Made by a program: the position numbers and the translations under genes. Source: an uncultured bacterium (lineage in GTDB: Bacteria > Actinomycetota > Acidimicrobiia > Spongiisociales > ZC4RG35). From it: a stretch of 64,000 bases of DNA. The notes under the pieces are model-generated. The model had not been told where the DNA came from. It searched no databases and saw only the letters and a program-made list of their open reading frames with translations. This document shows, piece after piece, positions 1,174-20,507 of the stretch (positions are counted from its first letter, which is position 1; the number at the start of each line of letters is the position of its first letter). Where the stretch lies: contig CAWGTX010000001.1 in assembly GCA_963825585.1 (NCBI GenBank), positions 669,613-733,612 on the forward strand. Direction: 5' to 3'.

Positions 1174-1279
1174 TCGGTTGCGCCCGGGTCGTCCAGACCC
1201 GGGCACACCGCCGCTTGCGTGTTCTCCGCCAGCGGCTTCACTGTCCCGTGCACGTCCATCCTGCGAAGAGGCCGAACGT

Positions 1280-2074
1280 ATGAGCCTGCCCGCCACGATC
1301 GCCCGGAGATCGCTCAAGACCGCCTCGATGGTGTTCGACCGGTTCGGGCCTCCGCTGCGGGGGCCACGTCTTCTCATCTATCACCAGGTGGGTGCCGGTA
1401 ACGGCCAGGAGATGGATCTGGCGCTGGATGACTTCCGTCGGCAGATGACCTGGCTGGCGTCGACCGGTGGAGTTGTTTCGCTCGAGGATGCCCTCGTGAC
1501 CCCGGACGATCCCTCGGACCGCTACGTCATCACCTTCGACGACGGGTACGACGACATGTACCGCAACGGCTTTCCGATTCTCCGCGACCTGGGTCTGCCC
1601 TTCGTGCTGTATCTGACCACCCAACCGATCGAGAGCAGAGCGCCGCTCCGCGACGACGGGCTCTCCACTCCGTGCACCTGGGATCAGGTGGGCGACATGA
1701 TGGGCAGCGGTCTCGTGACCCTCGGAGCTCACACCCATTCCCATCCCGACTTCCGTCACATCTCCTCTGCTCACATCGAAGACGAGGTGGGAGTCTCGAA
1801 CCGTCTGATCACCGAACGGACCGGCCACGCTCCGCGTCACTTCACCTACACCTGGGGCTACTGGTCCGAGCAGGCCGACCCCATCGTGCGCGCCGCCTAC
1901 GACACGGCCACCGTTGCCGGCTGCAGGACGGCGCTGGGCGCTCCGGCCAACGCCATCCCACGCCTGCCGGTGCAGCTCACCGACGGGTTCGGCTTCTTCC
2001 GGGCCAGGATGCGGGGAGGGTTCCGTCTCGAGGACACGATCCGTCGTCGCCTCTCCGGGTACAACGGTCCCTGA
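1280..2074 (+). CDS. Polysaccharide deacetylase (NodB homology domain)
   Basis: ITFDDGY and HTHSH NodB motifs. ATG at 1280 (MSLPATIA) chosen over the longer Arg/Pro-rich ORF start at 1178. Confidence 0.75.
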   Translation: MSLPATIARRSLKTASMVFDRFGPPLRGPRLLIYHQVGAGNGQEMDLALDDFRRQMTWLASTGGVVSLEDALVTPDDPSDRYVITFDDGYDDMYRNGFPILRDLGLPFVLYLTTQPIESRAPLRDDGLSTPCTWDQVGDMMGSGLVTLGAHTHSHPDFRHISSAHIEDEVGVSNRLITERTGHAPRHFTYTWGYWSEQADPIVRAAYDTATVAGCRTALGAPANAIPRLPVQLTDGFGFFRARMRGGFRLEDTIRRRLSGYNGP

Positions 2075-2075
2075 C

Positions 2076-3236
2076 GTGGCGCACGTACTCCATGTGATCA
2101 ACCGTTTCGGTACGTCCGGCGGTGCCGAGAATCAGCTCTTCAACAATCTCCGGAGGTTCTCGCATCCGGACCTCACCCACAGCGTGGTTCATGTGTTCCG
2201 AGGTACCGGCGACGATCCGCTTCCCGAGATCCCCAAACACGCCCTGTTCGGTGTGGGGGAGTCCCCCGGCCGGCTGGCGATCATCCGGGCCCTCGACCGC
2301 TACGTGATGGACACCCGACCCGACATCCTGCACTGTTCGCTGGCGGACGCGGCCCTGGCCGCCCGCGTGGTCGGTCGGCGCAGACACATTCCGGTGGTCG
2401 AGAGCCTGGTCAACATCAGCCACGATCCGGTTCGCATCGTCGACAATCCCTCTGTGAGCCCGCTCAAGCTGGCCGGCCACCGGATGCTCGACCGCATCAC
2501 GATGCGGCATGTGACCCGCTTCCACGCCCTGACTCGGGCGGTGGCACGATCCTGGCAGGCGAACGTGGGTATCTCGGCCGACCGGACGGTGATCATCCCG
2601 CGTGGCATCGACGTCGAGGCCTTCGATCACCGTGCCGGCATCGATCGGGCCGCCCTGCGCCAGTCGATCGGCGTGGCGCCCGAGGTCCCGATGCTGCTGA
2701 ACGTCGCCCGACAGGAACCACAGAAAGGCCAGCGCTACCTGCTGGAGGCACTCCCCGCCATCATCGAGCGCCATCCGGAAGTCGTGGCCGTGTTCGCCGG
2801 CCGCGACGGCAACTCCTCACCGATGCTCCGCAAACTGGTGAGCGATCTGGGAATCGAGTCCCACATACGTTTCCTCGGCGTGCGGGACGACGTTCCGGCC
2901 CTGCTGATGGCGGCGGACGTGTTCGTGTTCCCGTCATTGTTCGAAGGGTTGGGGGTTTCGCTGCTGGAGGCGATGGCAGGCGGGGGTGCGGCCTGTGCGG
3001 TTTCGGACGCTCCGCCATTCGACGAGATCGTCGACCCGGGAACCACCGGGGTCATGTTCCGATCGGCAGACGCCAAGGCGTTGGCCGTCACCGTGTCGGC
3101 ACTGCTGGCCGACCCGGAGGCGAGGGCGAAGATGTCGGACGCGGCCCGAGCCGAGGTGATGGCCAACTACCGCATCGAGGCCGTCACCCGTCGACTCGAG
3201 GACATGTACCTGGGCGTGCTCGCCGAACGGCGCTGA
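2076..3236 (+). CDS. Glycosyltransferase family 4 (GT-B, group 1)
   Basis: HVINRFGTSGGAE N-terminus; C-terminal EGLGVSLLEAMAGG...D E-x7-E motif. GTG at 2076 sits 1 nt after the deacetylase stop, and the longer ORF start at 1914 overlaps the upstream gene. Confidence 0.8.
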   Translation: MAHVLHVINRFGTSGGAENQLFNNLRRFSHPDLTHSVVHVFRGTGDDPLPEIPKHALFGVGESPGRLAIIRALDRYVMDTRPDILHCSLADAALAARVVGRRRHIPVVESLVNISHDPVRIVDNPSVSPLKLAGHRMLDRITMRHVTRFHALTRAVARSWQANVGISADRTVIIPRGIDVEAFDHRAGIDRAALRQSIGVAPEVPMLLNVARQEPQKGQRYLLEALPAIIERHPEVVAVFAGRDGNSSPMLRKLVSDLGIESHIRFLGVRDDVPALLMAADVFVFPSLFEGLGVSLLEAMAGGGAACAVSDAPPFDEIVDPGTTGVMFRSADAKALAVTVSALLADPEARAKMSDAARAEVMANYRIEAVTRRLEDMYLGVLAERR

Positions 3237-3398
3237 ACCCGGATGTCTGTTGCCTTCCCGAGGGCGCCGCTGCCCTCGCACCGCCGGGATGGTGGCGGAC
3301 ATGACACATGTGAGCCGAACGTCCGAGGCTTCCACCGACACTCGCTTGCTTCGTGTTGCGGCTGCAGAGCACCACCTGGCTTGATGCGTCGTGCTGTT

Positions 3399-3908
3399 GG
3401 TCGATAGCAACGTCTGGCTGACTGCAGGGGATCGTCGTTCCCGAGACTTGTGCGGGATCGCTGCCTCCAGTCCGTCTGCCCTACCTGCTGCCTGTTTGTC
3501 GTGGCCGCTGAGTCGGGCGTCGCAACGTCCGGGCCCGGCGAGCGCTTCGGGAACGATGAGGTCGACTGGGATGATTTCGTCATGGCCGTCCACGATGATC
3601 GACGTCCCCCAGATTCCCGGACGATCGGGCTGGGTTCTCGCGAATCCGGCCGCGGTCATCAACTCGGCCTGATTCGGCTTATCGGCGAGGGTGGCAGGGT
3701 CGATGGCCAGGTCGGCATCTGTGGTGTAGCTGGCCGAGAACGACAGTGCGACCTCGTCGGTGCGCAGGTAAACGGCTTGTGCGCCCACCAGCACCAGCGA
3801 GCGGCGATGGTCGGCAAGAGCATCGAGCGCTTCCAGCAGGACCCGACGAGCCTCGACCATCAACCGAGGCGCGCTCGTCATGAGCAGGTACCCGAGGTGC
3901 GGCGCCAT
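3399..3908 (-). pseudogene. Possible Pol-beta/AbiEii-like nucleotidyltransferase remnant (N-terminal ~170 aa protein-like; remainder of ORF is antisense to the GT4 gene)
   Basis: ORF 2934..3908 has an N-terminus LVLVGAQAVYLRTDEVALSFSASYTTDADLAI resembling the G[SA]x9-13DxD nucleotidyltransferase motif. The region has lower GC than its flanks, and the ORF tail overlaps the GT4 gene on the other strand. Confidence 0.25.
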
Positions 3909-3984
3909 GCCGATGAGGCAGGGTTCACGGTCGATGGATTGCCGTTCGCCGGGAGGTCTCGGAGAAGGTGGGGCTGCGAGCGGT

Positions 3985-4833
3985 TCACGCCCAGTCAGCG
4001 ACCAGATCCCCGAAGCGTTCCTTCATGCGCTCGATTCGGGGCGCGTACATCGCTCTCAACTCGATTTCGAGTTCGGTTGGCATTGCGCTGCCACCGCCGC
4101 GGGATCCGACCAGGTCGGCGCCGGGTGCGCCGCGGTCGATCACGGTGTCGAGCGGGAAGGCATCCCAGTCGACATCGGTGCCGACGCCGAGGAAGTCGAA
4201 CAGCGAGATGAGCAGCGCCTTGGGGTCCGACACCATTCGGTCGTAGCTGTCGACCCACAGTCGCTCGGCCGGGTAGCGCTTCGTCCACCGGTCCACGATG
4301 CCCACGTAGTCGCCGCTGTCGAGGCTGTGGACCGAGCGGGCGTGGGCGATGTACTCGGACACCGGGACCGAGTCGACGGGGCGGTTGCGTTGGCGGGCCA
4401 CATTCATCTGGGCGTGTGACCAGGCACGGTCCACCGGGTGGCGGATCATCAGCAGCAGCCTGGCGTCGGGGAGCAGGTCGGCCACCACGTCGATCCGATC
4501 GGGGGTCAGCTCCGAGTAGTTCGGTGTGATCTCGCCGCGGAGGCGGTCCCTGGCGGCATCGAAGTGGGCGGCGTACCACCGCAACGAGTGGTGGTAGAAG
4601 TGGCAGAAGTAGTGCAGCTCCTTCTCGGGAGGAACGAACACGCCTGGATGTGCAGCCAGGCAATGGTGCAGCCAAGTGGAACCTGCCTTCGGGGCTCCCA
4701 GTCCGAGAAACTGCGGCAGCGCCAATTTGTCGCTGGACAGGACCCCCCGGCGTGTCAACGCCCGCTCCGGGGCCGAGATCGCGTACTCGGCCCTCTGCGC
4801 GGTCCGGACTACGCGCTTGACCGCCTGCTTCAT
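3985..4833 (-). CDS. PAPS-dependent sulfotransferase family protein
   Basis: 5'-PSB motif LGAPKAGSTWLHHCL (PKxGTTW-like). Start ATG (MKQAVKR) at 4833 is confirmed on the sequence and overlaps the stop of the upstream FemAB-like gene (ATGA). Confidence 0.8.
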   Translation of the reverse strand: MKQAVKRVVRTAQRAEYAISAPERALTRRGVLSSDKLALPQFLGLGAPKAGSTWLHHCLAAHPGVFVPPEKELHYFCHFYHHSLRWYAAHFDAARDRLRGEITPNYSELTPDRIDVVADLLPDARLLLMIRHPVDRAWSHAQMNVARQRNRPVDSVPVSEYIAHARSVHSLDSGDYVGIVDRWTKRYPAERLWVDSYDRMVSDPKALLISLFDFLGVGTDVDWDAFPLDTVIDRGAPGADLVGSRGGGSAMPTELEIELRAMYAPRIERMKERFGDLVADWA

Positions 4834-5879
4834 CGCACCCGTCCTTTCAACGCTTCGGCGGCTCTCCGTCGAAGTCCGACCGCCGCTCCCGCCATCCCAC
4901 GCTGCAACGACCAGGTGGTGTCGGCCGAGGGCACCGCCCCGAAGCGGCGTTTGTAGGCGTCGTCGCCACGCAGGAAGTCGAATGTGGTGGCGCCGGTCTC
5001 GGTGGCGTGGCGCATCGTCGTGCTCACCAACACCGACCCGAGGCTTTGTTTCACATAGTCCTGCGACCATCCGGTCTGGTAGTACGCGAACGTGGCGCCG
5101 AACCGAAACCCGTACAGCACCCCCACGATGTCGCCGTCGAGCCGCGCCACACACGCCATCGGCCCCCGGCCGTCCGAAGCCCCGTCGATGAGGTGTCGGT
5201 GGAACGCCTCGCGATCGCGGTCGAAGCTGGACCCCCATCCCATGCCCTCCGCCCGAACCGCATGCAGCTCGAGCAGACTACGGAAGACGGCCTCGTCGAT
5301 ACCGGAGGCCGGGACCATCGCAACGGAGATGCCGAGCTTGACGAGTTGCCGTTCGAAGTAGCGGAGTTTCTTGGCGAAATCCGCCGAACCGGGAAACCAT
5401 TCGTCGCCGGAACCGAGCGGAGCAACCAGGGTCGGGTTGTCCTCGATCTTGCTGAACCCGGCCTCGGCCAGGCCCTCGACGGACTCTGGCGCCATGTTGG
5501 ACAACACGATCGGGCCTGAGGTGGATTCGATCACCCAGCCTGCAACGTCCCGCCGCAAGCCCGGACGTGCCGGCCACCCGAGGTGGTCCCCGGCGCCGGC
5601 GCCACTGCCGGTGTTCACCCACATCCGTACCGCAGGTCCACCCGAGCGGAGGAGGGGCTGGTTCACGCGGGACACCGCGCAGACGGCCTCCAGAGCGCCC
5701 TCGGGGTCTCGCCACAGTCCGATCCGGGTCTCGGGGCGCCCCGCCAGACGGTCCCACCAGGCAACCGCCCAGGTCCCGGTCTGGAAGAACGAGCCGCCGG
5801 TGGACTCGGCGAGATCGTCCCATTCCGCCACCGGAAGCGCTTCGTCATCCGGTGCCACGACTGCGTCCGGACCTCTCAC
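4830..5879 (-). CDS. FemAB-like / BioF2-like GNAT acetyltransferase (Acetyltransf_6, CelD-like)
   Basis: 349-aa ORF with the FemAB/CelD-type architecture GSFFQTGTWA...VARLDGDIVGVLYGFRF...KRRFGA. Confidence 0.65.
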   Translation of the reverse strand: MRGPDAVVAPDDEALPVAEWDDLAESTGGSFFQTGTWAVAWWDRLAGRPETRIGLWRDPEGALEAVCAVSRVNQPLLRSGGPAVRMWVNTGSGAGAGDHLGWPARPGLRRDVAGWVIESTSGPIVLSNMAPESVEGLAEAGFSKIEDNPTLVAPLGSGDEWFPGSADFAKKLRYFERQLVKLGISVAMVPASGIDEAVFRSLLELHAVRAEGMGWGSSFDRDREAFHRHLIDGASDGRGPMACVARLDGDIVGVLYGFRFGATFAYYQTGWSQDYVKQSLGSVLVSTTMRHATETGATTFDFLRGDDAYKRRFGAVPSADTTWSLQRGMAGAAVGLRRRAAEALKGRVR

Positions 5880-5941
5880 GGAGCGAGTCCCGATGGATGG
5901 GTGGCGCTGGGAGGCATCGGCTCTATCCTGCTCGATCTCAC

Positions 5942-6460
5942 ATGGTCATCGGCCGCTATCACATCATCTCCTACGAGCGGGCTACCTCCATCGAGGGCTT
6001 CCGGGCGGACAAGGCGATCCGAATCGCGTCCGCCGCCGATCTCGATCTGCTCGCTCCGCTGCTGGCGCCGGGCGTGGATCACGCCGCCCGAATCGCCGCC
6101 GGCGGTGTCTGCGTGTGGGCGGCCACACCGGACGGTGCCCCGGCCGGGCTGCAGTGGGTCAACGTGTCCGGTCATCCCGACCGTCACTTCGGCGTCCTCA
6201 GCCGCCCCGGCAATGGCGTGGCCTACCTCAACCAGATCGTGGTGGACGACCGGTACCGGGTGCGGGGTTATGCCCCGCGGGTGATGATCGCTTCGATCGA
6301 GGCGGCCGGAAAGGCCGGATTCCCCAGGGTTCGGGGGTTGGTGGCGACCAGCAACACGACCATGCAGACGCTGGTGGAGGGGTTGGGGTTCGAACGGGTC
6401 GGGTCCCAGCGCGGCGTGCGGATCGGCCGCGACCTGACCGTCCGGGTGCCCGGGAACTGA
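5942..6460 (+). CDS. GNAT family N-acetyltransferase
   Basis: MVIGRYHII...; acetyl-CoA binding segment QIVVDDRYRVRGYAPRVMIASIEAAGKAGF. Start ATG at 5942 is in frame with ORF 5567..6460. Confidence 0.7.
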   Translation: MVIGRYHIISYERATSIEGFRADKAIRIASAADLDLLAPLLAPGVDHAARIAAGGVCVWAATPDGAPAGLQWVNVSGHPDRHFGVLSRPGNGVAYLNQIVVDDRYRVRGYAPRVMIASIEAAGKAGFPRVRGLVATSNTTMQTLVEGLGFERVGSQRGVRIGRDLTVRVPGN

Positions 6461-6732
6461 GCGACGCTCCGTGCCGGCCCGAGTATTGGTCTTGACCCAG
6501 GCCTGAATCAGCGCCCCGTGTTCGTAACTCCCCACCCGGAGCACTCTATTACCACCGGACCCGAGGGGAAGTAGGCCGCCCCAAAACCCAACGGGTTCAG
6601 TCCGAGACGGTTATCCAGCCCTTATCGCTCCGTTGGTGAATGTTGCCAAGCCCCTCCGGTAACGTCTCGAAGGCACCATCCTCTGGGTAACGGTGTTGCG
6701 TGGTGTGGGATCGCTGAGGCGAAGGTGGAAGC

Positions 6733-7389
6733 ATGAACAGGTTTTCGAGTACGTTCGAACGCCCGAAGCGGCGAAATCCGTCGGGTGCGGTCTTTTGGGT
6801 CTTCGTTTTCCTGGCGATTTCGATCCAGCCGCAGGTCCCGGCCTTCGCCCAGGTGTCGCCGTTCGACGACACCGCAGGATCGGTCCATGAGGCCGACATC
6901 GCCCTCCTCGCCGAGTGGGGGATCACCAAGGGTTGCACCGACTCCTCGTACTGCCCGGAGGTTTCGGTGACTCGAGGTCAGATGGCAGCATTCATGCGGC
7001 GATCGTTCGTGACACCCACCAGCCAATACGACTACTTCGGTGACGACGAAGACTCGGTGTTCGAAGCCGACATCAACTCGATCACGGGTGTGGGCATCAC
7101 CCAAGGATGCAATCCGCCCACCAGTTCGCAGTACTGCACCGACGACGTGCTCACCCGGGGTCAGATGGCTGCCTTCCTCCGTCGCACGCTGAGCCTCCCG
7201 GCAGGGCCCGACGTGTTCTCCGACGACGAGAACTCGGTGTTCGAGGCGGACATCAACGCTCTCGCCGCCGCCGGCATCGCCAAGGGGTGCTCCGATGGCC
7301 GGTTCTGCCCCGATGACGTGATCACGCGAGCACAGATGGCCAGCTTCCTGGTCAGGGCACTCGACCACCTCGGATGCCGGGGGGCATGA
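6733..7389 (+). CDS. Small secreted protein made of three SLH (S-layer homology)-like repeats
   Basis: Signal-like N-terminus. Three ~55-aa repeats F-DD--SVFEADI--L---GI--GC-----CP---VTRGQMAAFL-R-L match the SLH consensus (F.D....w...aI..L...GI..G.....F.P...iTRaE.A..L.ral), with an added conserved Cys pair. Confidence 0.7.
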   Translation: MNRFSSTFERPKRRNPSGAVFWVFVFLAISIQPQVPAFAQVSPFDDTAGSVHEADIALLAEWGITKGCTDSSYCPEVSVTRGQMAAFMRRSFVTPTSQYDYFGDDEDSVFEADINSITGVGITQGCNPPTSSQYCTDDVLTRGQMAAFLRRTLSLPAGPDVFSDDENSVFEADINALAAAGIAKGCSDGRFCPDDVITRAQMASFLVRALDHLGCRGA

Positions 7390-9077
7390 CCATGACAGAA
7401 CTCAACCGTCGACAGTTCCTCCGCCGCGCCGGGCTGGTGGCCGTCGCCACCGGAGTCCCTGCGGTGGCATCCGTCACCCGTCCGCAGGCCGCCCAGGCCG
7501 CCACGCTCACCACCGACACCACCGTGTCGACCCTCACCGTCGCAGCGGGCGAGGTGTACGAGTTCGACCCGAACCGATCGGTCACGCTCACCGTCACGGG
7601 CGGTGGCGACGCCGCGTTGATGGTGCTCGGCACGCTGCGGATGCGCCCGGCCAGCGCCGGCATCGTCCACAAGATCCGGTTCACCGGCGGCGGCGAGATC
7701 ATGGTGATGGACAATGGTCGTCTCGACATCCAAGGGACGACGAAACAGGCGTGGAACCGTACCGGCGACCATGCCACGTGGACCTCCCAGGATCAGCTGA
7801 TCGTCGCTCCCATCAACCCCGGCGACTACACGTTCCGCTCCTTCACCAAGGGTGGGACGGTTCAGCAGGTCAGCAACCGCCACGGTGTGTTCAAGGCCGA
7901 GGTGATGAACCTGACCCGCAACGTCGTGATCGAGGGCACCACCTCGGTTCCGATGCGGCGCATCATGCTCATGTCCAATGTCGCCCAGACCATCAACTAC
8001 GCCGAGGTCCGGTACGTGGGCGACCCCGACGAGATCGGCTTCTACCCGATCCACTTCCACCTGATGGGGGAGGGTGCCAGGGGGAGCGTGGTCGAGGGCA
8101 CCGTCGTGCACCACGCCTACCACCACGCGTTCGTCGTGCACGGCAGCCACGGCGTCACGCTGCGCGACTGTGTCGCCTACGACGTCGAGGCCGACGCCTA
8201 CTGGTGGGATCTGCCGCCCGAGAACGACTTCGACAACGACATCAACAACACCCACGACGTCGTGTACGAGAACTGCATCGCCGCCGACGTGCATCGGGCC
8301 GACCTCAACGATCCGGTTTCCCGGCCCAACGAGTTGTCCGGATTCCTCATGGGTGCGGGTGTCAACAACACGGTCCGTGGCTGCGTGGCCGTCGGGGTGG
8401 GCGGCGGGGTTCGGACATCCGGCTACCACTGGCCCTCGAAGGCGAACTCGCAGACCAGTCCCTGGGTGTTCGAGGACTGCATGACCCACAACAGCCGTGA
8501 GTACGGCATCTTCGTGTGGCAGAACACTGCATCCGAGCGTCACAACATCGATCGGTTCGTCTCGTTCAACAACGGGTTGGGACCGGTGAAGCACGGCGCA
8601 TACAACAACCGGGGATACCACTACCGCGACTGTGTGTTCTTCGGGAACGGCGGGGGCCTGGAACAGAACGCCCAGACCACCGTTCCCGAGAGCAACCAGA
8701 CCAAGGAGCGGCTGTCGTTCGAACGCACCGTTTTCGACGATGCGCCGGTTTCGCTGCTCATGGTCGACCACAACCTCGACCCGTCACAGCCAACGCTGTA
8801 CCTCGACTGTGAGTTCGCCGGACAGTTGGTCGTGAACAACGATCGCCGTCACGGCTGGTACGACTTCGTTCGGTGCAACGTCTCGGAGTCGGACTTCGAC
8901 CTCTCCGACATGAAGCCTGAGTCGATCATCCGGATCCAGGACGCCAACGGCGACGCCGTCGAGATCACCACGTCCGGCTCGCGATCGATCCCGGCGTTCT
9001 GGGACGGCTGGTCCTCGACGGTGCCCAAGCCCGGCCAGGAGTTCCCCGACTGGGATCCCTCCTGTGGTAATCGCTGA
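7383..9077 (+). CDS. Tat-signal secreted protein, probable right-handed beta-helix carbohydrate-active enzyme (function unknown)
   Basis: Twin-arginine motif NRRQFLRRAGLVAVATG...AQAA. Gly/Asn/Thr/Val-rich sequence with His clusters (IHFHLMGEG, HHAYHHAF). Its start overlaps the end of the SLH-repeat gene. Confidence 0.6.
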   Translation, partial: GMTMTELNRRQFLRRAGLVAVATGVPAVASVTRPQAAQAATLTTDTTVSTLTVAAGEVYEFDPNRSVTLTVTGGGDAALMVLGTLRMRPASAGIVHKIRFTGGGEIMVMDNGRLDIQGTTKQAWNRTGDHATWTSQDQLIVAPINPGDYTFRSFTKGGTVQQVSNRHGVFKAEVMNLTRNVVIEGTTSVPMRRIMLMSNVAQTINYAEVRYVGDPDEIGFYPIHFHLMGEGARGSVVEGTVVHHAYHHAFVVHGSHGVTLRDCVAYDVEADAYWWDLPPENDFDNDINNTHDVVYENCIAADVHRADLNDPVSRPNELSGFLMGAGVNNTVRGCVAVGVGGGVRTSGYHWPSKANSQTSPWVFEDCMTHNSREYGIFVWQNTASERHNIDRFVSFNNGLGPVKHGAYNNRGYHYRDCVFFGNGGGLEQNAQTTVPESNQTKERLSFERTVFDDAPVSLLMVDHNLDPSQPTLYLDCEFAGQLVVNNDRRHGWYDFVRCNVSESDFDLSDMKPESIIRIQDANGDAVEITTSGSRSIPAFWDGWSSTVPKPGQEFPDWDPSCGNR

Positions 9078-9210
9078 ACCCCATTGAGGCGACGGCCACC
9101 CGTGTTAGCCTGCTCAGCGGGGCGGCGGTAGAGCGCGGATTCCGGGACAAGTACCAATCGACGATCGGTGCGACGCGTTCCGGTTCTCCGCACCCGACAG
9201 GGGAAGGGCC

Positions 9211-10251
9211 ATGACGAGCGGAGATGTGATGACGGGTCCGGCGGTCGCCGGCAACGCAGAGACCAGGGGTGTGGTCGTTCGCGACGTCACCAAGGTCTAC
9301 AAGCCATCCTCGAAGGTGCTCAGCTTCCTGCTCCGTTCGCCCATCAAGAACGACGTTCACGCCCTCAACGGAATCAGCTTCTCGGTGCCCGCCGGGGAGA
9401 TCTGTGCTGTCGTCGGCCCCAACGGTGCCGGGAAGTCGACCACGTTCCGGATCCTGATCGGGCTGACCACCCCCACCACCGGCTCGGCCACCATCATGGG
9501 AATGAGCTGTGTGACCGAGTCGATGGAGGTCCGAAAGGTCATCGGATGGATGCCTTCGGAGGATCGAAGCCTGCTCATGCGCCTCAGCTGCGCCGACAAC
9601 CTGGTGTTCCACGGTCAGTTGCAGGGTCTCAACGGCAACAAGCTCAAGCAGCGCATCCAGGAGTCGCTCGATCTGGTGGGCATCGGGCACCGGGCCCGGG
9701 ACTCGGTGTTCTCGTTGTCATCCGGAATGCGGGCGCGGCTCCAGCTGGCCCGTTCGCTCCTGCATCAGCCCAAGGTGCTCATCCTCGACGAGCCCACCGC
9801 CACCGTCGACCCGATCGCCTCGTACGAACTCATCAACACCCTGCAGCGGGTTGCGGCTGAACGCAACATGTCGGTGCTCATCAGCTCGCACCGCCTCGAC
9901 GAGATCGAAGCGCTCAGCTCGCACGTGATCCTGCTCGACGGCGGCGCCATCAAGTACGACGGTGATCTCGAATCGCTCCGGGACCTGTGGACCCGGCCCA
10001 GGGTCGTCGCCGAGTTCCGGGATCCCGATGCGGCCCGGACCGCCGAGAAAGCCCTGTCGTCGGGTCAGGTGGTGGAAGTCGACACCACCGAGAGCATGGG
10101 AGTGGGCGGCCTTCTGGTCGCAGGGGCCACCATCGGAGACGTGGTGTCGTCGCTGCCGCCCGAATCCACTCGGGCGCTCATCACCATCCGGGAGGACCGA
10201 ATGCCCCTCCGTGACCTGCTCGCCGCCGTCTACCGGGGTGACCAGGTATGA
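9211..10251 (+). CDS. ABC transporter ATP-binding protein, ABC-2/Wzt/TagH-like polysaccharide exporter, with ~95-aa C-terminal extension
   Basis: Walker A GPNGAGKST, signature LSSGMRARL, Walker B LILDEPTATVD. Its stop overlaps the start of the downstream permease. Confidence 0.85.
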   Translation: MTSGDVMTGPAVAGNAETRGVVVRDVTKVYKPSSKVLSFLLRSPIKNDVHALNGISFSVPAGEICAVVGPNGAGKSTTFRILIGLTTPTTGSATIMGMSCVTESMEVRKVIGWMPSEDRSLLMRLSCADNLVFHGQLQGLNGNKLKQRIQESLDLVGIGHRARDSVFSLSSGMRARLQLARSLLHQPKVLILDEPTATVDPIASYELINTLQRVAAERNMSVLISSHRLDEIEALSSHVILLDGGAIKYDGDLESLRDLWTRPRVVAEFRDPDAARTAEKALSSGQVVEVDTTESMGVGGLLVAGATIGDVVSSLPPESTRALITIREDRMPLRDLLAAVYRGDQV

Positions 10252-11072
10252 AGCGCATCAAGGCGAAGCTGTGGAGGATGAAACAGACCTCTATGGCCTT
10301 CCTCCGTGCCGACATCGTCGAAGAGGCGAGTTATCCGATGTCGCTGGTGCTCGGCCAGGCCGGCATCGTTGTGCCGATCTTCGTGTCGTTCTTCATCGCC
10401 GACCTCGTCGGTGACTCCAGGGAGGTGGGTGGCGACTACCTCACGTTCGCCACCGTCGGGCTGGCCATGAGTGCCGCCCTCCAGGCCACCCTGCAGGGGT
10501 TCGGAACCCGGCTCCAACAGATCCAGGACCGCGGTCTGTTCGAGTCGATCCTGGTGGAGCCGATCAAATGGTTGTGGATGCCGGTCGCCATGAACCAGTG
10601 GAACATGTTCCGGGGGTTCATCAACGCCATCTTGTTGCTGCTCATCGGCAGTGCCCTCGGCGCCGACATCCGGCTGGCGGGCATCGGCGCCACTGTGGTG
10701 ATCGTGTTGGCGGGGATGGCGGCGGTCAGTTCGATCGGCATCCTTTCTGCCAGCCTGATGGTGCTCGCCAAACGTTCCCAGCCGGTGGTGGTGCTGTACG
10801 GCCTGGCCGCATCGATCTTCGGTGGCGCCCTGTTCTCGTTGTCGCAGCTGCCCACCTGGCTGCAACCGATCAGCTACCTCTTCCCGCACACCTACGTGCT
10901 CAACGGCGTCCGTTCGGCGTTGATGGACGATCCGGGCACCTTCGTGATGCCGGTTCCGGATGCGCTGCTCGGACTCGGCATCACAACCCTGGTGGTGGGC
11001 GGCATCGGGCTGTTCCTGTTCCAGAAGTCGTTGCAGACCGCCCGCGAACTCGGCCTGCTCAGCGGGTACTGA
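10248..11072 (+). CDS. ABC-2 type transporter permease (Wzm-like)
   Basis: Six-TM hydrophobic profile typical of ABC-2 permeases. ATGA overlap with the ATPase gene. Confidence 0.8.
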   Translation: MKRIKAKLWRMKQTSMAFLRADIVEEASYPMSLVLGQAGIVVPIFVSFFIADLVGDSREVGGDYLTFATVGLAMSAALQATLQGFGTRLQQIQDRGLFESILVEPIKWLWMPVAMNQWNMFRGFINAILLLLIGSALGADIRLAGIGATVVIVLAGMAAVSSIGILSASLMVLAKRSQPVVVLYGLAASIFGGALFSLSQLPTWLQPISYLFPHTYVLNGVRSALMDDPGTFVMPVPDALLGLGITTLVVGGIGLFLFQKSLQTARELGLLSGY

Positions 11073-11073
11073 C

Positions 11074-11940
11074 ATGACGGCCGTCAAGGAGCTCGCCCGC
11101 CAGAAGCTCTCGGTCAACGCCCGGCACCAGATCTCGCTCCTCCGGGTGAAATCACGGATGGCATGGCCGTCCATGGGCATGCTCCCGAACGTGCTCGTGA
11201 TCGGAGCCCAGCGGGCCGGCACGTCGTCGATCTACCGCTACCTCGGATCACATCCCGACGTGTTCGCCTCACTCCGCAAGGAGGTCGAGTACTTCTCGAC
11301 GCGGATGTCGATGGGGGAGCGCTGGTACCGGGCCCATTTCCCGTTGATCACCCGCCCCAAGCTGGCGTTCGAGGCAACCCCCGACTATCTGCTGCATCCA
11401 AGGGCGGCCGAACGTGCCGCCGCACGCATCCCCGACCTCAAAGCGGTGGCGCTCCTCCGAAGCCCCGTCACCCGGGCCTTCAGCCAGTACGGCCATCAGC
11501 GTCGTTTGAACAAGGAGCCGCTGAGCTTCATCGATGCGCTCCGGGCCGAGCCCGAGCGCATCGCCGGCGACCTGGATCGACTGGCCGCTGATCAGGACCA
11601 CCCCGGCATCGAAGTCCGCGTCCACGGCTACATGGAACGGGGCCGCTACGCCCCGCAACTCCAACGCTGGGTCGACGCCCTGGGACGCGAGCGCATCCAC
11701 GTGATCCGCACCGAAGACCTGTGGGCCGACCCGGCCGGCACGTACACCGGCCTGCTCGACTTCCTCGGCCTGCGCCACGTGATGCCCTCTTCCCTCGGCG
11801 AGAACTACAGCTACGTGAGGGACACCCCCAAACCCGAGAAGGCGATGCCGCCAGAAGCCGAGGCCCACCTCCGCCAGCAACTCCAGCCCGAGATCGAAGC
11901 GATCGAGGCGATGCTCGGGCGGCAGATGGGGTGGCTCTAG
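11074..11940 (+). CDS. PAPS-dependent sulfotransferase family protein
   Basis: LPNVLVIGAQRAGTSSIYRYL 5'-PSB motif. ATG at 11074 lies 2 nt after the permease stop. The longer ORF start at 10960 would overlap the permease. Confidence 0.8.
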   Translation: MTAVKELARQKLSVNARHQISLLRVKSRMAWPSMGMLPNVLVIGAQRAGTSSIYRYLGSHPDVFASLRKEVEYFSTRMSMGERWYRAHFPLITRPKLAFEATPDYLLHPRAAERAAARIPDLKAVALLRSPVTRAFSQYGHQRRLNKEPLSFIDALRAEPERIAGDLDRLAADQDHPGIEVRVHGYMERGRYAPQLQRWVDALGRERIHVIRTEDLWADPAGTYTGLLDFLGLRHVMPSSLGENYSYVRDTPKPEKAMPPEAEAHLRQQLQPEIEAIEAMLGRQMGWL

Positions 11941-11954
11941 TAGGCCGTTGACCC

Positions 11955-12194
11955 TTCACGGTTCACGGTTCGCCGTTCGGAGGTCACCGATCTGCGGCAC
12001 AACGTAGAACGTTCAACGTAGAACGTACGGGTCAGAGCGGTTCGGACGCCCAGCTACGAGTGATCGCCAGGCGGCGACTCCTCGGTTGACTTGGGCCAAG
12101 GCAGAACGTATCGACAATGCAGCGGATCAACAGGCCGACCTACCCGCCGGGCGGTCTCTTGCGTTTTGAGTTCAACGGTGAACGGTGAACGGTG
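11955..12194. repeat. Low-GC intergenic segment bracketed by imperfect inverted direct-repeat arrays (TTCACGGTTCACGGTT ... AACGGTGAACGGTGAA) with an internal AACGTAGAACGT x2 repeat
   Basis: Tandem heptamers at 11955-11980 and 12171-12194 are near reverse complements of each other. AACGTAGAACGTTCAACGTAGAACGT lies at 12001-12028. GC is clearly below the local average. Confidence 0.4.
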
Positions 12195-12195
12195 C

Positions 12196-12335
12196 TCAAC
12201 CCACCTTCCCGCTCGAGCATTGTGTCATCTTGGCGATGGACTCAAAGCTCTCGGGGACGAGCTCTGCGTCGTCGATCGCCAAGTCCGCCGAGCGAGAGCC
12301 GCCCTCGGCCAGGTCATCGAAAGGGCCACGGAGCA
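12196..12335 (-). pseudogene. Acyl carrier protein 3'-end fragment (paralogous to ACP gene at 17526..17771), lacks the Ser attachment site
   Basis: About 85 nt (12196-12285) are ~80% identical to the last codons of the ACP gene (17523-17610), translating DLAIDDAELVPESFESIAKMTQCSSGKVG versus DIEIDDEELVPENFESIAKITGLVSGKVG. No DSL motif upstream. It abuts the YciI gene. Confidence 0.5.
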
Positions 12336-12629
12336 CTAGCTGCGGGCGGCGAAGTCGCCGATGCCGAGGATCTGGTGGAGGTCCCAGTCGATCAGCTCGA
12401 AGCGGCATTCACCGCCGTCGGTGAACGGGTCGGCGGCTGCGATCCTGTGCGCCTCCTCCGCTGTGTCGGCCCTGATCAGGTAGAGGCTGACTGAGCGGTC
12501 TCGACTGGGACCCGACATCAGGACCGTGCCGGCCAGGTGCTGGTCTCTCATCCAGTCGAGATGCTCTTGCAGGGTCACCGTCCATTCGGAACGAGGGCGC
12601 AACGGACGACGCAGGCAAAGGAAGTACAC
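12336..12629 (-). CDS. YciI-like (YCII-related) domain protein
   Basis: 97-aa ORF with a typical YciI stretch, ...HLAGTVLMSGP...ADTAEEAHRIAAADPF... Confidence 0.65.
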   Translation of the reverse strand: MYFLCLRRPLRPRSEWTVTLQEHLDWMRDQHLAGTVLMSGPSRDRSVSLYLIRADTAEEAHRIAAADPFTDGGECRFELIDWDLHQILGIGDFAARS

Positions 12630-13155
12630 GGTCTCTCCATCCTCGTGGGCTAGCGATTGTTGCCGCTGTCGCCCGGTGGTGTCGGGAAACGGCGATGGCT
12701 GGGGAGCGAGGCACCGCAGTCAGCGGTGAGGTTCAGGAGAGCGGTCCGGGTGCCGGGGCGGCCTCGCCCAGCCAGATCGAAGGTCGCCGCCGCCGTCGAT
12801 CGAGAAGGTGTGATCCCGCTGTTGTCGGCAAGATGTTCGGCTCCGGCCTCGAGCTTCGTGCCTCGCCGAGCACGTACCAGCGGGAGATGCCCGGGTAGCG
12901 GCTGACCTCTCGAGGCAACACCCCGCTGGATCCTCCCCGGGCTCGAGCCGGATCGTCGCCTCCGCCCAGCCGCTGACCGACGGGAAGGGCGGTGAGCGCC
13001 CGTCGTACGAACCGCAGGACCTGCGTTCGAACGCGATCGGTCAACAAGGCTCAGGCGTGACCTCCCGTTCGCCTGCCGGCTCCCGACTCCCCGTCATGCC
13101 CGTGCTCACCGGGCGCAACAGTGCGTCTTCTCCCGGCGGTCTCGCCCCGTCGGGA

Positions 13156-13695
13156 TCACTGCCCGTCGTCCGGGCCGCTTGGGTCGGCCGATGTCGCCGG
13201 CAGGTCTCGAGCGTCGCCCGTCCGGTCGGCAAGGACGGGAGCAGTGAACGGGAGGGCGGGTGCCAGCGCGAGGCCGATCGGGGTGGCGAACCGGATGAGG
13301 GCGGCCACCACGACGACGGCGCCGAGTGCGAACCACAACCGACGCCCCACCGATGTGCCGGCATCCTCGCGGACGGTCACGGCCGCTCCCACGGCGTAGG
13401 CACCGATCAGTGCAGTGGCAGGGTCCGCCACCAGGAGGACACCGCCGATGCCGAGAGAGAGGACCAACGCCCACACGACGGCGCCCGCCGCACGGTCGTG
13501 ACCCGAGCCGAAAGCGGCAACCATGAACGCAGCCGGAATCAGTGCCAGCCCCAGCGCCCAGGCGGCAGCGATCGGCTCCTCGCTCGCGCCGGCCGCCACC
13601 CCTATGACGAGCGCCCAGAATGAGATCGTGACGACAGCTGTGGCGCCGGCGACACCGAGCAGAAGCCGACGCGGCGTCGTCGGATCGCCGAACAT
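13156..13695 (-). CDS. Hypothetical integral membrane protein
   Basis: 179-aa ORF with 4-5 hydrophobic helices, lying directly downstream of the ABC permease genes on the same strand. Confidence 0.45.
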   Translation of the reverse strand: MFGDPTTPRRLLLGVAGATAVVTISFWALVIGVAAGASEEPIAAAWALGLALIPAAFMVAAFGSGHDRAAGAVVWALVLSLGIGGVLLVADPATALIGAYAVGAAVTVREDAGTSVGRRLWFALGAVVVVAALIRFATPIGLALAPALPFTAPVLADRTGDARDLPATSADPSGPDDGQ

Positions 13696-13708
13696 CTCAG
13701 CCAGGTGA

Positions 13709-14653
13709 CTACCCCTTGACCGATCCGGCGGTGAGGCCCCTGACGAAGTATCGCTGCAACCCGAAGAACACCACGAGCGGCAGCGCCATGGTCAGGAATG
13801 CCCCGGCCGTCAGTAGGTGCCACGCCTCCCCACGCGAGCCGTTCAACTGGTTCAACGCGATCGTCAGGACCTCGACGTCGGCCGACGAGCCGAGGAACAC
13901 GAAGGCGACGAGGAAGTCGTTGAAGACCCAGAGGAACTGGAAGATGGCGAAGGCCGCCAAAGCCGGTACCGACAACGGGACGATCAGCCTCGTGAATATC
14001 GCAAAGTGATCGGCCCCGTCGATCTCCGCGGATTCGATCAGCGACGACGGCAGTGAACCGATGTAGTTCCTGAGGAGGTAGATCGCCAGGGGCAGCCCGA
14101 ACCCTGTGTGGGCGATCCAGACGCCGAGGAAGGTACCGTTCAGGTTCAGCGCCGGAAACAGCGTGAAGTCGCCGAACGAGATCCCGGACGTGTAGAGCCG
14201 GAGGATCGGGATGAGCGCCATCTGGAGCGGCACCACCAGCAACGCCACGACGACGACGAATATCGTCTGCCGACCCGGGAAATCCATCCAGGAGAACGCA
14301 TAGGCTGCGAACGCCGCGATCGTGATCGGGATCACCGTGGCGGGCACGGCCACCGTCACCGTGTTCACGAAAGCGTTCCCGAAGCCCTCGTCGAGGACGG
14401 TCCGATAGTTCGAGAGGGTCCACTGCGACGTGTCGGCGAACGTCGTGAACACGGTCCACCAACCCGTAGTGTTGATCGCTTGTGCCTCGCGGAACGAGCT
14501 CACGAGCAGTCCGAAGGTGGGAACCAACCAGATCAGCACCACCAGGGCGACGATGATGCGGATCAGCCACAGGCCACTCTCGGCTCCGACGTTCCCCTGT
14601 TCGCCGCGTGTTGGTGACGCCACTCTCTTTGCCGTTGCCGTGGTCGCCGTCAT
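13709..14653 (-). CDS. Carbohydrate ABC transporter permease (MalG-like)
   Basis: EAA-type loop [21 protein letters not shown] (MTATTATAK) confirmed at 14653, in an ATGA overlap with the upstream permease. The N-terminal 143 aa of track ORF 13709..15082 is an artefact. Confidence 0.85.
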
Positions 14654-15795
14654 CGCATCGCCTCCTCTGCCCGGAACCGTCTCACGTTGAGGATCATCAC
14701 CGGGATGACGGCCACGAACATGAACACGGCGACCGCAGCCCCTCGTCCGAAGTGTCTGAGTACGAAGAACTCGTCGATCATCTTCTGGGCGATGATCTCT
14801 GTGCCGAACTGTCCGCCTGTCATGACCCAGACGATGTCGAAGATCTTGAGGACATTGATCACCATCGTCGTGAGTACGACCACGATGGTCGACATGATGC
14901 TCGGCACGGTGACTCTCCAGAACACTGCCACCTCGGAGGCACCGTCGATCCGGGCCGCCTCGAGGATGTCGGTCGGGACGGCCTTGATGGCCGACGACAG
15001 GATCACCATGGCGAATCCGGTTTGCAGCCAGATCATGATGACCATCAGCAGCAGGTTGTTCCACGGCTGCTCCTGAAGCCACGGCACCGGGTCGGCGCCC
15101 ACACCGACCATGATGCCGTTGAACAGTCCGATCTGCTCACCGAACCCCTCCGGTCGGAAGTTGTAGACGAAGCGCCACACGATCGCCGCTCCGACGAACG
15201 AGATGGCCATCGGGAGGAAGATCATGGACTTCGAGATCGACTCAGCCCGCTTGAGCCTGTCGGCGAGCACCGCGAACCCGAGCCCGATCGCGGTGGCCAC
15301 CATCGGCACGACGATCACCCATCCGACGGTGTTGCGGATCGCCCGCAGCATCCGCTCGTTGGTGAACACGTATGCGTAGTTGTCGAGCCCGACGAAGGCG
15401 TCACCGGTGGGACCCGTGAAGCTCAGCCACAGGGTGTTGAACGCCGGATAGACGAGATAGATCGTGAGCACGACGATCGCCGGGCCCACGAAGGCAAACG
15501 GACGGACCTTCCGCCCGAGGCTGTCGGGCAGCAGCTTGATGAGCAGGTCCATGCCCCAGTAGAGGCCGAACACCCCGAACACGCCGACAACGAGCGCCAC
15601 CAGGATCACCATCGTGCGGGGAGCGTCCTGATTGCGAAGGAACAGGAACGACTGCCACAGCAGGATGAAAGCAACGATCGGGACCGCCAACGAGACGACG
15701 ATCCGCAGGACGCCGGCGGTCAGGCCGGCCTGTTCACGACTCGGAGAAGGCGGGGGCGGCGAGGCCGCGGGCTCTTGGATCGTGGGTGTGCTCAT
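14650..15795 (-). CDS. Carbohydrate ABC transporter permease (MalF-like)
   Basis: [21 protein letters not shown] loop with multiple TM segments. Start MSTPTIQEP at 15795. Confidence 0.85.
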
Positions 15796-15901
15796 CGCAG
15801 GTCTCTCCTCCTCCGGTCGGCTCCAATCGTGAGCCTCGGAGGGGGTGGCGGTGACCGCCACCCCCTCCGAGCATCTGGTTGTCCGGTGCTACCGGCTCAG
15901 C

Positions 15902-17131: not shown

Positions 17132-17201
17132 GGCCCCGGTGTTCTCGCCGGATCCTCCGCCATCGGTACCACCATCGGCGTCGCCTACTGGCGACCTGGG
17201 G

Positions 17202-17215
17202 TGTAAGCGCTTACA
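17202..17215. promoter_or_regulatory. Perfect 14-bp palindrome TGTAAGCGCTTACA (LacI-family operator-like, AGCGCT core) upstream of SBP gene
   Basis: Exact palindrome; shares the AGCGCT core with the CebR boxes at 56783 and 56884. Confidence 0.4.
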
Positions 17216-17525
17216 AGGCTAACCACAAGTCGATACGCACCGCAACCGATCGTTGGTCACTTTCTTGTGGGCCGATGGCCATCGAGATCGGGTGCGGACA
17301 ACGGGTGATCGGCGGGATCCGACCCGACCAACGATTCGGCCGACCTTCACCGACGGACTCTGGCGGTTGTCCTCGCCATGGTGACCCTCGCCGATACTTG
17401 GTCCCGTGTTCGGCTGGCCGGCCTCGAAGTGGTTTCCACTGCCGGCATTGGGGCGCGGTCGGTGCTCCTCGCCCTGTTCGGGTTGGTGTTCGGGGTCGCC
17501 CTGCTCGGGCGCGATTCCAACCGCG

Positions 17526-20505: not shown

Positions 20506-20507
20506 GG

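Follow-up and report, generated by a model that had tools for sequence, protein, structure and literature searches.

A candidate sulfated-glycan locus of the Acidimicrobiia, with two sulfotransferases of the heparan-sulfate class and an ABC-2 exporter of the DrrAB/ABCA/NosFY branch

The stretch of DNA considered here (the window) is 64,000 nucleotides of contig CAWGTX010000001.1, from an uncultured bacterium of the Acidimicrobiia, and its first 12 kb hold a gene cluster in which two sulfotransferases, ST1 and ST2, of the type that uses 3′-phosphoadenosine 5′-phosphosulfate (PAPS), are encoded among genes for the assembly and export of a glycan. This part of the window is the right-hand half of a cell-envelope glycan locus of ~20 kb. 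The dehydratase gene with which it opens is cut by the window start, with the C-terminal 390 of 663 residues remaining, and the locus therefore extends upstream. The nearest genome loci to the window are in Acidimicrobiia metagenome-assembled genomes (MAGs), and named relatives of ST2 are likewise labelled Acidimicrobiia (loci of relatives carry L numbers below). As the G+C content is high, 66%, plain lists of open reading frames (ORFs) are crowded with spurious frames, and the gene calls were based on third-position G+C (GC3). The features of the cluster are as follows.

1-1173, plus strand: PglF/CapD-like membrane-anchored UDP-N-acetylhexosamine (HexNAc) 4,6-dehydratase, C-terminal 390 of 663 amino acids (Polysacc_synt_2, E 1.2e-108)
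1280-2074, plus strand: CE4 (NodB-type) polysaccharide deacetylase, 264 amino acids, the same length as in L085 (Polysacc_deac_1, E 3.8e-20)
2076-3236, plus strand: GT4 glycosyltransferase, 386 amino acids, with a gene call of 386 amino acids in L085 (Glycos_transf_1, E 3.7e-34; Glyco_transf_4)
3313-3984, no strand: junction without a convincing gene, between the left and right modules, where homology to relatives breaks
3985-4833, minus strand: ST1 sulfotransferase, 282 amino acids (Sulfotransfer_3, E 1.8e-18; Sulfotransfer_1, E 1.2e-10)
4830-5879, minus strand: FemAB-like Acetyltransf_6 acyl/aminoacyl transferase, collinear in L001-L004 (Acetyltransf_6, E 3.5e-24)
5942-6460, plus strand: small GNAT acetyltransferase, 172 amino acids, gene-called in L086 (Acetyltransf_1, E 1.1e-6)
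6733-7389, plus strand: secreted S-layer homology (SLH) protein with a signal peptide and three SLH repeats of TRGQ/TRAQ type (SLH, E 2.6e-13)
7374-9077 (likely start ATG 7386), plus strand: right-handed beta-helix protein exported by twin-arginine translocation (Tat), CEMIP/TMEM2 hyaluronidase-like (CEMIP_beta-hel, E 1.6e-15)
9211-10251 (likely start ATG 9229), plus strand: ATPase of an ABC-2 (type V) exporter, DrrA/ABCA/NosF class, with a 90-residue alpha/beta C-terminal domain
10248-11072, plus strand: ABC-2 permease, DrrB-like, 274 amino acids (ABC2_membrane, E 1.2e-14; drrB, 4.9e-11)
11074-11940, plus strand: ST2 sulfotransferase, 288 amino acids (Sulfotransfer_3, E 2.4e-13; Sulfotransfer_1, E 2.6e-10)

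The first-pass annotation, made from the letters alone, had proposed two PAPS-type sulfotransferases from their 5′-phosphosulfate-binding (5′-PSB) motifs, and this stands: both score with Sulfotransfer_3 and Sulfotransfer_1 well in excess of the Pfam gathering scores, and all three expected motifs are intact in each. The 5′-PSB loop (G-x-x-K/R-x-G-T/S-T/S) is LGAPKAGSTW in ST1 (core GAPKAGST) and GAQRAGTSS in ST2, the 3′-phosphate-binding (3′-PB) motif (R-x-P-x-x-R-x-x-S) is RHPVDRAWS and RSPVTRAFS, respectively, and the catalytic-glutamate segment (E-x-T-P-x-Y) is EITPNY and EATPDY. Residues invariant across 27 homologs of ST2 are G44, Q46, R47, G49, T50, S51, E100, R129 and S137, with E100 aligning to the glutamate of ‘EKTPSY’ in the heparan sulfate 3-O-sulfotransferase 3-OST-3 (glutamate serves as catalytic base in HS3ST1 and NST1; PMC11625862).

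ST1 and ST2 are 29% identical to one another. When a profile of the 27 ST2 homologs was searched against the PDB, the matches were 3RNL (1.9e-42), human 3-OST-3 (1.4e-36) and the N-sulfotransferase domain of the N-deacetylase/N-sulfotransferase NDST1 (2.1e-34), with StaL, TPST and CurM marginal and Stf0 not among the matches of this profile. ST1 matches the same families more weakly (3RNL 2.3e-14, 3-OST-3 1.9e-13). The AlphaFold model of ST2, with a predicted local distance difference test (pLDDT) score of 92.4, recovered 3RNL, 3-OST-1/-3/-5 and NDST1 in Foldseek at E 1e-10 to 5e-15, and the next classes (CurM, Stf9 and TPST) begin at E 8e-6. By sequence and predicted fold, ST1 and ST2 are PAPS-type sulfotransferases of the heparan-sulfate 3-OST/NDST class, a class of glycan-acting enzymes. 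A mapping of their homologs to families that sulfate small molecules or lipids had been raised beforehand as grounds for abandoning a glycan role; since both sequence and fold place the two enzymes in the glycan-type class, those grounds fall away. The near-equal profile scores for 3-OST-3, which is O-sulfating, and NDST1, which is N-sulfating, do not separate the two kinds of sulfation. An exact-sequence look-up of ST1 returned no match, probably from a differing recorded start codon.

Close packing of the genes bears out two of the arrangements that had been pointed to earlier: the stop of the FemAB-like gene and the start of ST1 overlap as ATGA, and ST2 is right behind the permease gene, its ATG beginning at 11074 one base after the permease TGA ends at 11072. 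The permease start in turn overlaps the ATPase stop as ATGA, and a further ATGA (7386-7389) joins the stop of the SLH gene to the beta-helix start. A promoter and terminator scan of 3200-12700 gave nothing above chance, and an Rfam scan of the whole window gave zero matches.

The exporter had been taken to be Wzm/Wzt-like, and here the earlier description has to be given up. The highest-scoring NCBIfam model for the ATPase is drrA (192 bits, under the cut-off of 312), followed by GldA and NodI (NodI models 116-128 bits), and the best for the permease is drrB, though weakly so (42.8 bits, where the cut-off is 223). A profile of 39 ATPase homologs found in the PDB ABCA3, ABCA4, ABCA7 and ABCA1, then TM_1403 (4YER) and NosF, and the ATPase does not fall in the Wzt/KpsT/TagH ATPase subfamily. 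That the ATPase carries an extra C-terminal domain was correctly seen: ~90 residues (256-346) follow the nucleotide-binding domain. In the model of the ATPase (pLDDT 89.6) they form an alpha/beta domain, with the order b-a-b-b-a-a-b-a. The binding domain of Wzt for carbohydrate is a beta-sandwich. Foldseek aligned the model with 4YER, ABCA and NosF chains over 321-345 columns. The match extends past the nucleotide-binding domain for NosF (291/298 residues), ABCA4 (311 residues) and 4YER (258-321 residues or alignment columns), whereas full-length Wzt (7k2t) came at rank 47, with 234 residues aligned, approximately the length of the nucleotide-binding domain. Structure prediction of the C-terminal domain, suggested as a check in the first-pass annotation, thus has it superposing on NosF and ABCA4 and not on the Wzt carbohydrate-binding domain.

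The assignment of the C-terminal domain rests on fold, because its sequence gave no significant match in the PDB and, in Pfam, only weak matches to DrrA1-3_C, in 3 of 21 members when the C-terminal domains were taken alone. One full-length homolog of the ATPase (P0228, 52% identical) scores 27.7 bits with DrrA1-3_C, for which the gathering score is 27.4. Wzt_C is matched neither by the window ATPase nor by the C-terminal domains of 21 homologs. Its modelled fold places the exporter in the DrrAB/ABCA/NosFY branch of type V ABC-2 systems, for which the extra ATPase domain is standard. The C-terminal domain of DrrA itself is not homologous to the Wzt binding domain, and TM_1403 is the nearest structure to DrrA; the DrrA domain is required for export of phthiocerol dimycocerosate (PDIM) and has been proposed to bind substrate, though its role is unsettled (PMC11539658). 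An analogy with NosDFY was also considered, as the order beta-helix protein, ATPase and permease is that of nosD-nosF-nosY and the ATPase fold agrees well with NosF. It was dropped as the chief explanation: the beta-helix protein is matched by CEMIP/TMEM2 and not by NosD, it accompanies ST2 homologs in many exporter-less loci, and in other lineages its gene is divergent from the exporter genes.

For comparison, the window proteins were mapped onto 80 genome loci encoding ST2 homologs (mostly Acidimicrobiia), 76 of which, with an ST2 homolog <60% identical, are termed distant. The ST2-type locus recurs across Acidimicrobiia MAGs of varied sample origin and in a few Acidobacteriota, and genomes of Ilumatobacteraceae, Iamia sp. 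and Microthrixaceae are among the matches. Collinearity extends over the full 12 kb in the four closest loci alone (ST2 70-91% identical), and the adjacency of permease and ST2 is confined to these four and a single distant locus. As for the triplet of exporter permease, exporter ATPase and sulfotransferase, which the earlier annotation had suggested checking by comparative genomics, an ST2 homolog directly follows the permease in 1/76 distant loci; the most frequent immediate neighbor of an ST2 homolog is a CE4 deacetylase gene directly after it (23/76 distant loci), and a CE4 gene is somewhere in the locus in 41/76. Exporter orthologs lie ≤10 kb from the ST2 homolog in 19 distant loci, a beta-helix homolog is present in 25 and the dehydratase in 14. 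The window CE4 and ST2 genes lie 9 kb apart, and no fusion of CE4 and sulfotransferase was found among 120 ST2 homologs. That the gene set is kept together though its order is shuffled argues for a single pathway.

Loci of this type commonly encode several sulfotransferases, 2-5 from at least two families in 58 of the 80 and 4-5 in 14, and such number and diversity point to decoration at multiple sites. A third family (with a GSGRSGTT loop and matching Sulfotransfer_3 only) is present in 45/80 loci, with ≤4 copies in each, and is absent from the window. Its members are often the sulfotransferases nearest to the exporter (e.g. L081 13137-14096 on the minus strand, L010 16826-17743 and L082 12920-13864). 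In L082 the exporter is accompanied by a WecA-like gene, GT4 genes, a CE4 gene, an Acetyltransf_6 gene and a sulfotransferase. Orthologs of the exporter, 48-51% identical and with the same C-terminal extension, are also present in the glycan loci L083 (Nitriliruptorales) and L084, where there is no sulfotransferase within 10 kb of them.

A source of PAPS is at hand. The complete set of five genes for its synthesis and recycling, with recycling of the by-product 3′-phosphoadenosine 5′-phosphate (PAP), is at 43-48.6 kb, 31 kb from the cluster, as the first-pass annotation had said in placing a complete PAPS module ~30 kb downstream.

43076-43909, minus strand: CysQ-like PAP phosphatase (Pfam Inositol_P)
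43863-45638, minus strand: sulfate permease (Pfam CitMHS/Na_sulph_symp/TrkA_C)
45402-46589, strand not given: CysD (Pfam PAPS_reduct)
46590-47870, strand not given: CysN (Pfam GTP_EFTU)
47951-48580, strand not given: CysC adenosine 5′-phosphosulfate (APS) kinase (Pfam APS_kinase)

In one relative (L073, 11510-15590) only ~2 kb separates the genes for CysQ, CysC, CysN and CysD from the cluster with the ST2 homolog, which physically ties PAPS supply to the glycan locus.

The glycan-assembly genes at the left of the cluster include the dehydratase, which in NCBIfam is matched best by PseB and FnlA (full-length homologs have 640-665 amino acids), and the CE4 deacetylase, in which the TFDDGY and HTHSH metal-binding motifs are kept and a hydrophobic N-terminus and signal peptide are absent; judged from its sequence, the deacetylase is probably cytoplasmic. 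Further genes are known from upstream in close relatives: two for GT4 enzymes (one GNAT-fused) and one for a PF00953 polyprenyl-phosphate HexNAc-1-P transferase of WecA/TagO type, and, on the opposite strand, an Acetyltransf_9 gene and a further GT4 gene. Pfam searches found no Wzx and no Wzy in the window cluster or among the relatives’ upstream genes (L085, L086 and L082), so that assembly on polyprenyl phosphate followed by ABC export is a reasonable route. A second GT4 and CE4 pair in the window (33684-35829) is 29% and 22% identical to the first, and relatives of this second GT4 are present in 47 of the related loci.

The two ends of the cluster have different affinities. Window 1-3312 is 92% identical at the nucleotide level to L085 and 3985-11979 is 81% identical to L001, while the ~670 bases between match neither; in L085 the GT4 gene is followed, from 14136 on, by YD-shell (Rhs-type) genes, and in L001 (1-2900) the dehydratase, CE4 and GT4 genes are not present ahead of ST1. 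Within 3313-3984 GC3 is of coding type in none of the frames, and Pfam gave no match. The cluster is a mosaic, and this segment may be a recombination junction between two glycan modules. Two minus-strand ORFs in the region were rejected. One, 5876-6544, is spurious: coding GC3 is in the plus frame, and the GNAT gene of the plus strand, the real gene, is conserved at 84%, 68%, 66% and 69% in L001-L004, where the minus frame reaches 62% and 38-39%. The other, 2934-3908, has no Pfam match and is conserved only where it is antisense to the GT4 gene.

Two secreted proteins are encoded between the transferases and the exporter. The beta-helix protein has a twin-arginine leader (RRQFLRR), and its sole significant relative in the PDB is the cell-surface hyaluronidase TMEM2 (8C6I, 4.1e-9). 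The SLH protein is one of three SLH-domain proteins in the window (6733-7389, 23642-25009 and, on the minus strand, 37008-38711); there is also SLH-like similarity at 30282-30842, inside an ORF of the beta-lactamase family (30033-31559). The usual SLH motif is TRAE, in place of which the protein of the cluster has TRGQ/TRAQ. No PS_pyruv_trans match, as would be given by the pyruvyl transferase CsaB, was seen in the window ORFs scanned, and the material returned by a literature search for a sulfated SLH ligand, as far as it extends, consists only of papers on pyruvylated polymers.

To the right of the cluster is an acyl module that may belong with it and would then bear on the nature of the product.

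~17526-17771, minus strand: carrier protein with a DSLG motif (ORF motif)
17768-19453, minus strand: AMP-binding enzyme (Pfam)
19339-21851, minus strand: two acyl-CoA dehydrogenases (Pfam)
21852-23036, minus strand: alpha/beta hydrolase (Pfam)

The module as a whole (17526-23647, minus strand) also includes a conserved protein of 293 amino acids without a Pfam match, and it may provide an acyl/aminoacyl substituent. In L002-L004 its orthologs come immediately behind ST2, and in L026, L040, L044, L047, L063, L066, L073, L081 and L084 they adjoin the cluster. Relative to L002-L004 the window has an insertion of ~5.8 kb (12336-17218), in which a YCII gene is accompanied by the genes of an ABC importer for sugar, encoding two permeases and one binding protein.

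Taken together, real sulfotransferases of glycan class, a Wzx/Wzy-less glycan locus and a PAPS module make a sulfated envelope glycan the likely product, and in this respect the first-pass annotation, which had argued for a sulfated surface glycan, holds up well. The explanation that best fits the whole, and which is considered fairly probable, is of a hexosamine glycan primed on polyprenyl phosphate, built by GT4 enzymes, sulfated in the cytoplasm and exported by a general-purpose type V ABC exporter. A short or moderate-length hexosamine-rich glycan would be assembled on polyprenyl phosphate at the cytoplasmic face, with the PglF/CapD-like dehydratase leading to a sugar of 6-deoxy-HexNAc type. 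The cytoplasmic CE4 enzyme would strip selected N-acetyl groups, the GNAT and FemAB-like transferases would re-acylate free amines, and ST1 and ST2 would sulfate two different positions with PAPS as donor, PAPS being supplied by CysDN/CysC and PAP recycled via the CysQ-like phosphatase. PAPS is cytoplasmic; this, together with a CE4 protein that keeps its metal motifs and has no signal peptide, implies that deacetylation and sulfation would precede export and take place on the lipid-linked intermediate. The ABC-2 exporter would then move the anionic lipid-linked product across the membrane. Outside the cell the Tat-exported CEMIP/TMEM2-like beta-helix protein probably processes the polymer, perhaps by trimming, and the small SLH-only protein would associate with the wall. 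Sulfate in this scheme would be a decoration that charges the polymer and not a signal at the chain end, and ST2 would lie behind the permease because the genes of the pathway are grouped in an operon.

Several observations sit less easily with that explanation. The 5′-PSB loop of ST2 carries a family-invariant arginine where most PAPS sulfotransferases have lysine (arginine in this loop has also been reported for NodH; PMC11625862). There is one GT4 gene in the window cluster and about five when the relatives’ upstream genes are included; as all are single-domain and there is no obvious polymerase, the locus could yield an oligosaccharide or a glycolipid instead of a polymer. Those DrrAB/ABCA relatives of the exporter with known substrate transport lipids, and the AMP-binding/carrier/acyl-CoA dehydrogenase module that travels with the locus hints at an acyl part outside the model. 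Lastly, a sulfotransferase gene is directly downstream of the permease gene, on the same strand, in 7 of the 23 exporter-bearing loci, and the enzymes in this position are non-orthologous: L007 has a paralog of ST2, L010 a member of the third family, and the others are orthologs of ST2. Such a recurrent slot may mean more than shared transcription.

What more it could mean had been proposed in the first-pass annotation, with sulfate as a chain-terminating or export-licensing modification. In full, the sulfate added by ST2 would be a non-reducing-end cap that halts growth, and the C-terminal domain of the ATPase would read the cap and license export, by analogy with methyl, phosphomethyl or Kdo (3-deoxy-D-manno-octulosonic acid) caps read by the carbohydrate-binding domain of Wzt. 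The co-transcription of ST2 one base behind the permease, the three sulfotransferase lineages among the occupants of the post-permease slot, the presence of a sulfotransferase ≤2.2 kb from the exporter in 18/23 loci (the usual order being ATPase, permease, GT4 and convergent sulfotransferase) and the extra ATPase domain itself would suit such a role, as would the finding that the corresponding domain of DrrA is essential for PDIM export and a proposed substrate binder (PMC11539658). However, the alpha/beta domain superposes on NosF and ABCA4, Wzt aligns over 234 residues only, and it is DrrA1-3_C, not Wzt_C, that is matched in the family. Homology of the extension to a domain that does not bind glycan had been named in advance as telling against capping, and an alpha/beta domain of the DrrA/ABCA/NosF class, with a homolog matching DrrA1-3_C, is a finding of that kind. 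The identical domain type is present in the exporter orthologs of the sulfotransferase-free loci L083 and L084, the adjacency of permease and ST2 is missing from most loci, and up to five sulfotransferases per locus favor decoration at multiple sites. A terminator and a ruler protein are likewise missing from what was seen: a WbdD-like kinase/methyltransferase or a Kdo transferase is not among the Pfam matches in the window cluster and the relatives’ upstream genes, and no gene for a coiled-coil ruler was seen in the locus. A literature search for a sulfate cap recognized by Wzt or another exporter found nothing relevant. With the ATPase domain of non-Wzt type, no backing from synteny and the sulfotransferases multiple, a chain-terminating or export-licensing sulfate is very improbable.

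A different product altogether, a sulfated glycolipid or lipo-oligosaccharide made by the logic of Nod factor or sulfolipid-1, is to be taken more seriously, though it too is rather unlikely. A short oligosaccharide made by GT4 enzymes would be N-deacetylated by the NodB-like CE4 protein, N-acylated (the AMP-binding enzyme and the carrier protein serving to activate the acyl group), sulfated, and exported in the manner of NodIJ/DrrAB. The cytoplasmic CE4, the acyltransferases within the cluster, the single-domain nature of all the GT4 enzymes and the recurrence of the AMP-binding/carrier/acyl-CoA dehydrogenase/hydrolase module alongside the locus in several lineages are consistent with this, as are the nearest named families of the exporter (DrrA, GldA and NodI for the ATPase, DrrB for the permease) and the ABCA lipid transporters. 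Yet the WecA/TagO-type priming transferase in the relatives’ cluster points to polyprenyl-linked assembly, ST1 and ST2 are in the class that acts on glycosaminoglycans, apart from Stf0 and other glycolipid enzymes, the exporter genes are co-transcribed with those for an SLH protein and for a secreted beta-helix protein resembling glycan depolymerases, and in the window the acyl module is ~5.8 kb away from the cluster. Halogenase, carrier-protein and luciferase-like genes adjoin the cluster in L081, and could be taken to mean that ST1 and ST2 act on some unrelated substrate, a secondary metabolite or a protein, their position being mere genome neighborhood. This is scarcely credible given their co-transcription with the exporter and FemAB-like genes, the conservation of the co-occurring gene set, in shuffled order, across 80 loci, and the structural class of the two enzymes, which acts on glycans.

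The preferred explanation, a polyprenyl-phosphate-primed sulfated glycan, can be taken a step further on the strength of the recurrent pairing with CE4, since an ST2 homolog ahead of a deacetylase gene recalls the pairing of deacetylase and sulfotransferase in NDST. An ST2-type sulfotransferase and a cytoplasmic CE4 enzyme would then be a split bacterial counterpart of animal NDST, making N-sulfated hexosamine in a wall-linked glycosaminoglycan-like polymer, a suggestion that is speculative and on balance unlikely. It is similarly doubtful that this polymer, and not a pyruvylated one, would be the anionic ligand of the TRGQ/TRAQ-type SLH proteins of the lineage and be processed by the beta-helix enzyme.

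Comparison with known systems shows what is and what is not novel. Sulfated capsules exported by KpsMT, with structures determined, are known from Cobetia marina KMM 1449 and Vibrio sp. KMM 8419, and their loci have in-cluster sulfotransferases together with cysDNC, cysQ and sulfate-permease genes, the sulfate being in-chain (PMC11766843, PMC11641403). In kind, then, a bacterial polysaccharide that is sulfated and ABC-dependent has been seen before, and the present locus shares with these the combination of glycosyltransferases, sulfotransferases, CysDN, CysC, CysQ, a sulfate permease and an ABC exporter. The capsule producers, however, are diderm Proteobacteria with KpsM/KpsT and KpsD/KpsE and with Kdo-lipid priming, whereas here the host belongs to the Actinomycetota, the exporter is of DrrAB/ABCA type, priming is WecA-like, the sulfotransferases are of heparan-sulfate type with SLH and beta-helix partners, and the PAPS genes are 31 kb off. 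The present locus is set apart by its phylum, by the branch of its exporter, by enzymes of heparan-sulfate type, by the recurrent pair of sulfotransferase and CE4, and by the SLH and beta-helix partners. A literature search for sulfotransferases in Acidimicrobiia found nothing relevant.

The Wzm-Wzt exporters (E. coli O9a; Aquifex aeolicus 7K2T and 8DKU) resemble the exporter of the window in being type V ABC-2 systems with a six-helix permease and a separate ATPase that has a domain after the nucleotide-binding domain and a signature of the S-S-G-M type (LSSGMRARLQLA). They differ in that the appended domain is alpha/beta here, Wzt-family structures are not among the closest, and a capping enzyme of WbdD type is absent. 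The highest matches of the ATPase in sequence and fold, C-terminal domain included, are with DrrABC (the mycobacterial PDIM exporter), TM_1403 (4YER), the nucleotide-binding plus regulatory domains of ABCA1/3/4/7 and NosFY. Known substrates of DrrABC and ABCA are lipids and the cargo of NosDFY is copper/sulfur, whereas the context here is glycan assembly; moreover, unlike DrrABC, with DrrB and DrrC, there is a single permease gene, and the drrA score is under the NCBIfam cut-off. As for the sulfotransferases, fold (TMq 0.65-0.71), 5′-PSB, 3′-PB and the E-x-T-P-x-Y segment are shared with animal 3-OSTs, NDST1 and the uncharacterized bacterial 3RNL. The differences are an identity of only 20-28%, in ST2 arginine for the 5′-PSB lysine, and the deacetylase being a separate CE4 protein.

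The Nod-factor pathway (NodB, NodA, NodH, NodPQ and NodIJ) has in common with the locus a cytoplasmic CE4 enzyme, acyltransferases, a sulfotransferase, PAPS supply and an exporter of DrrAB/NodIJ class, and NodH, like ST2, has arginine in its PSB loop (PMC11625862). Unlike that pathway, there is here no chitin-oligomer synthase of NodC-type GT2 and no NodA homolog, with GT4 enzymes and a WecA-like primer instead, and the class of ST1 and ST2 differs from that of NodH. Assembly of the cyanobacterial polysaccharide synechan is of Wzx/Wzy type. The synechan locus (xss), for a sulfated exopolysaccharide, includes several sulfotransferases (PMC8205485), but it belongs to a diderm phototroph and has a different set of sulfotransferases.

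The remainder of the window has features of other kinds. A 572-amino-acid ORF at 31678-33396 has a LipB/LplA-type domain (29-220) followed by a lipoyl synthase radical-SAM domain (280-491), and so appears to be a LipB-LipA fusion; it adjoins genes for 2-oxoacid dehydrogenase E3 and E2. Between an SLH gene and an epimerase gene, 38700-41400 (~2.7 kb) has a strong AT skew and long overlapping ORFs on both strands with no Pfam match. A beta-glucan utilization region, 52413-64000, has GH16, a sugar ABC importer, a LacI regulator and GH3, and also encodes a secreted CBM11/Calx-beta/GH16 protein of 1134 amino acids.

Sulfated glycans have been much studied in animals and algae and have seldom been characterized in bacteria. 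The extracellular polymeric substances (EPS) of sludge contain N- and O-sulfated glycosaminoglycan-like polymers, measured chemically, for which bacterial pathways are poorly known and reference sulfotransferases give few matches (PMC10483923). If an ST2-type enzyme and CE4 do form a split NDST, producers could be named for this material. As sulfate in the role of an export licence lacks support, the value of the present finding is as a well-founded genomic prediction and not as a new mechanism. For a sulfated envelope polymer in Actinomycetota, the locus supplies concrete candidate genes and a pathway open to testing. If the prediction is true, an exporter of the DrrAB/ABCA class would be at work in the export of a glycan rather than of a lipid.

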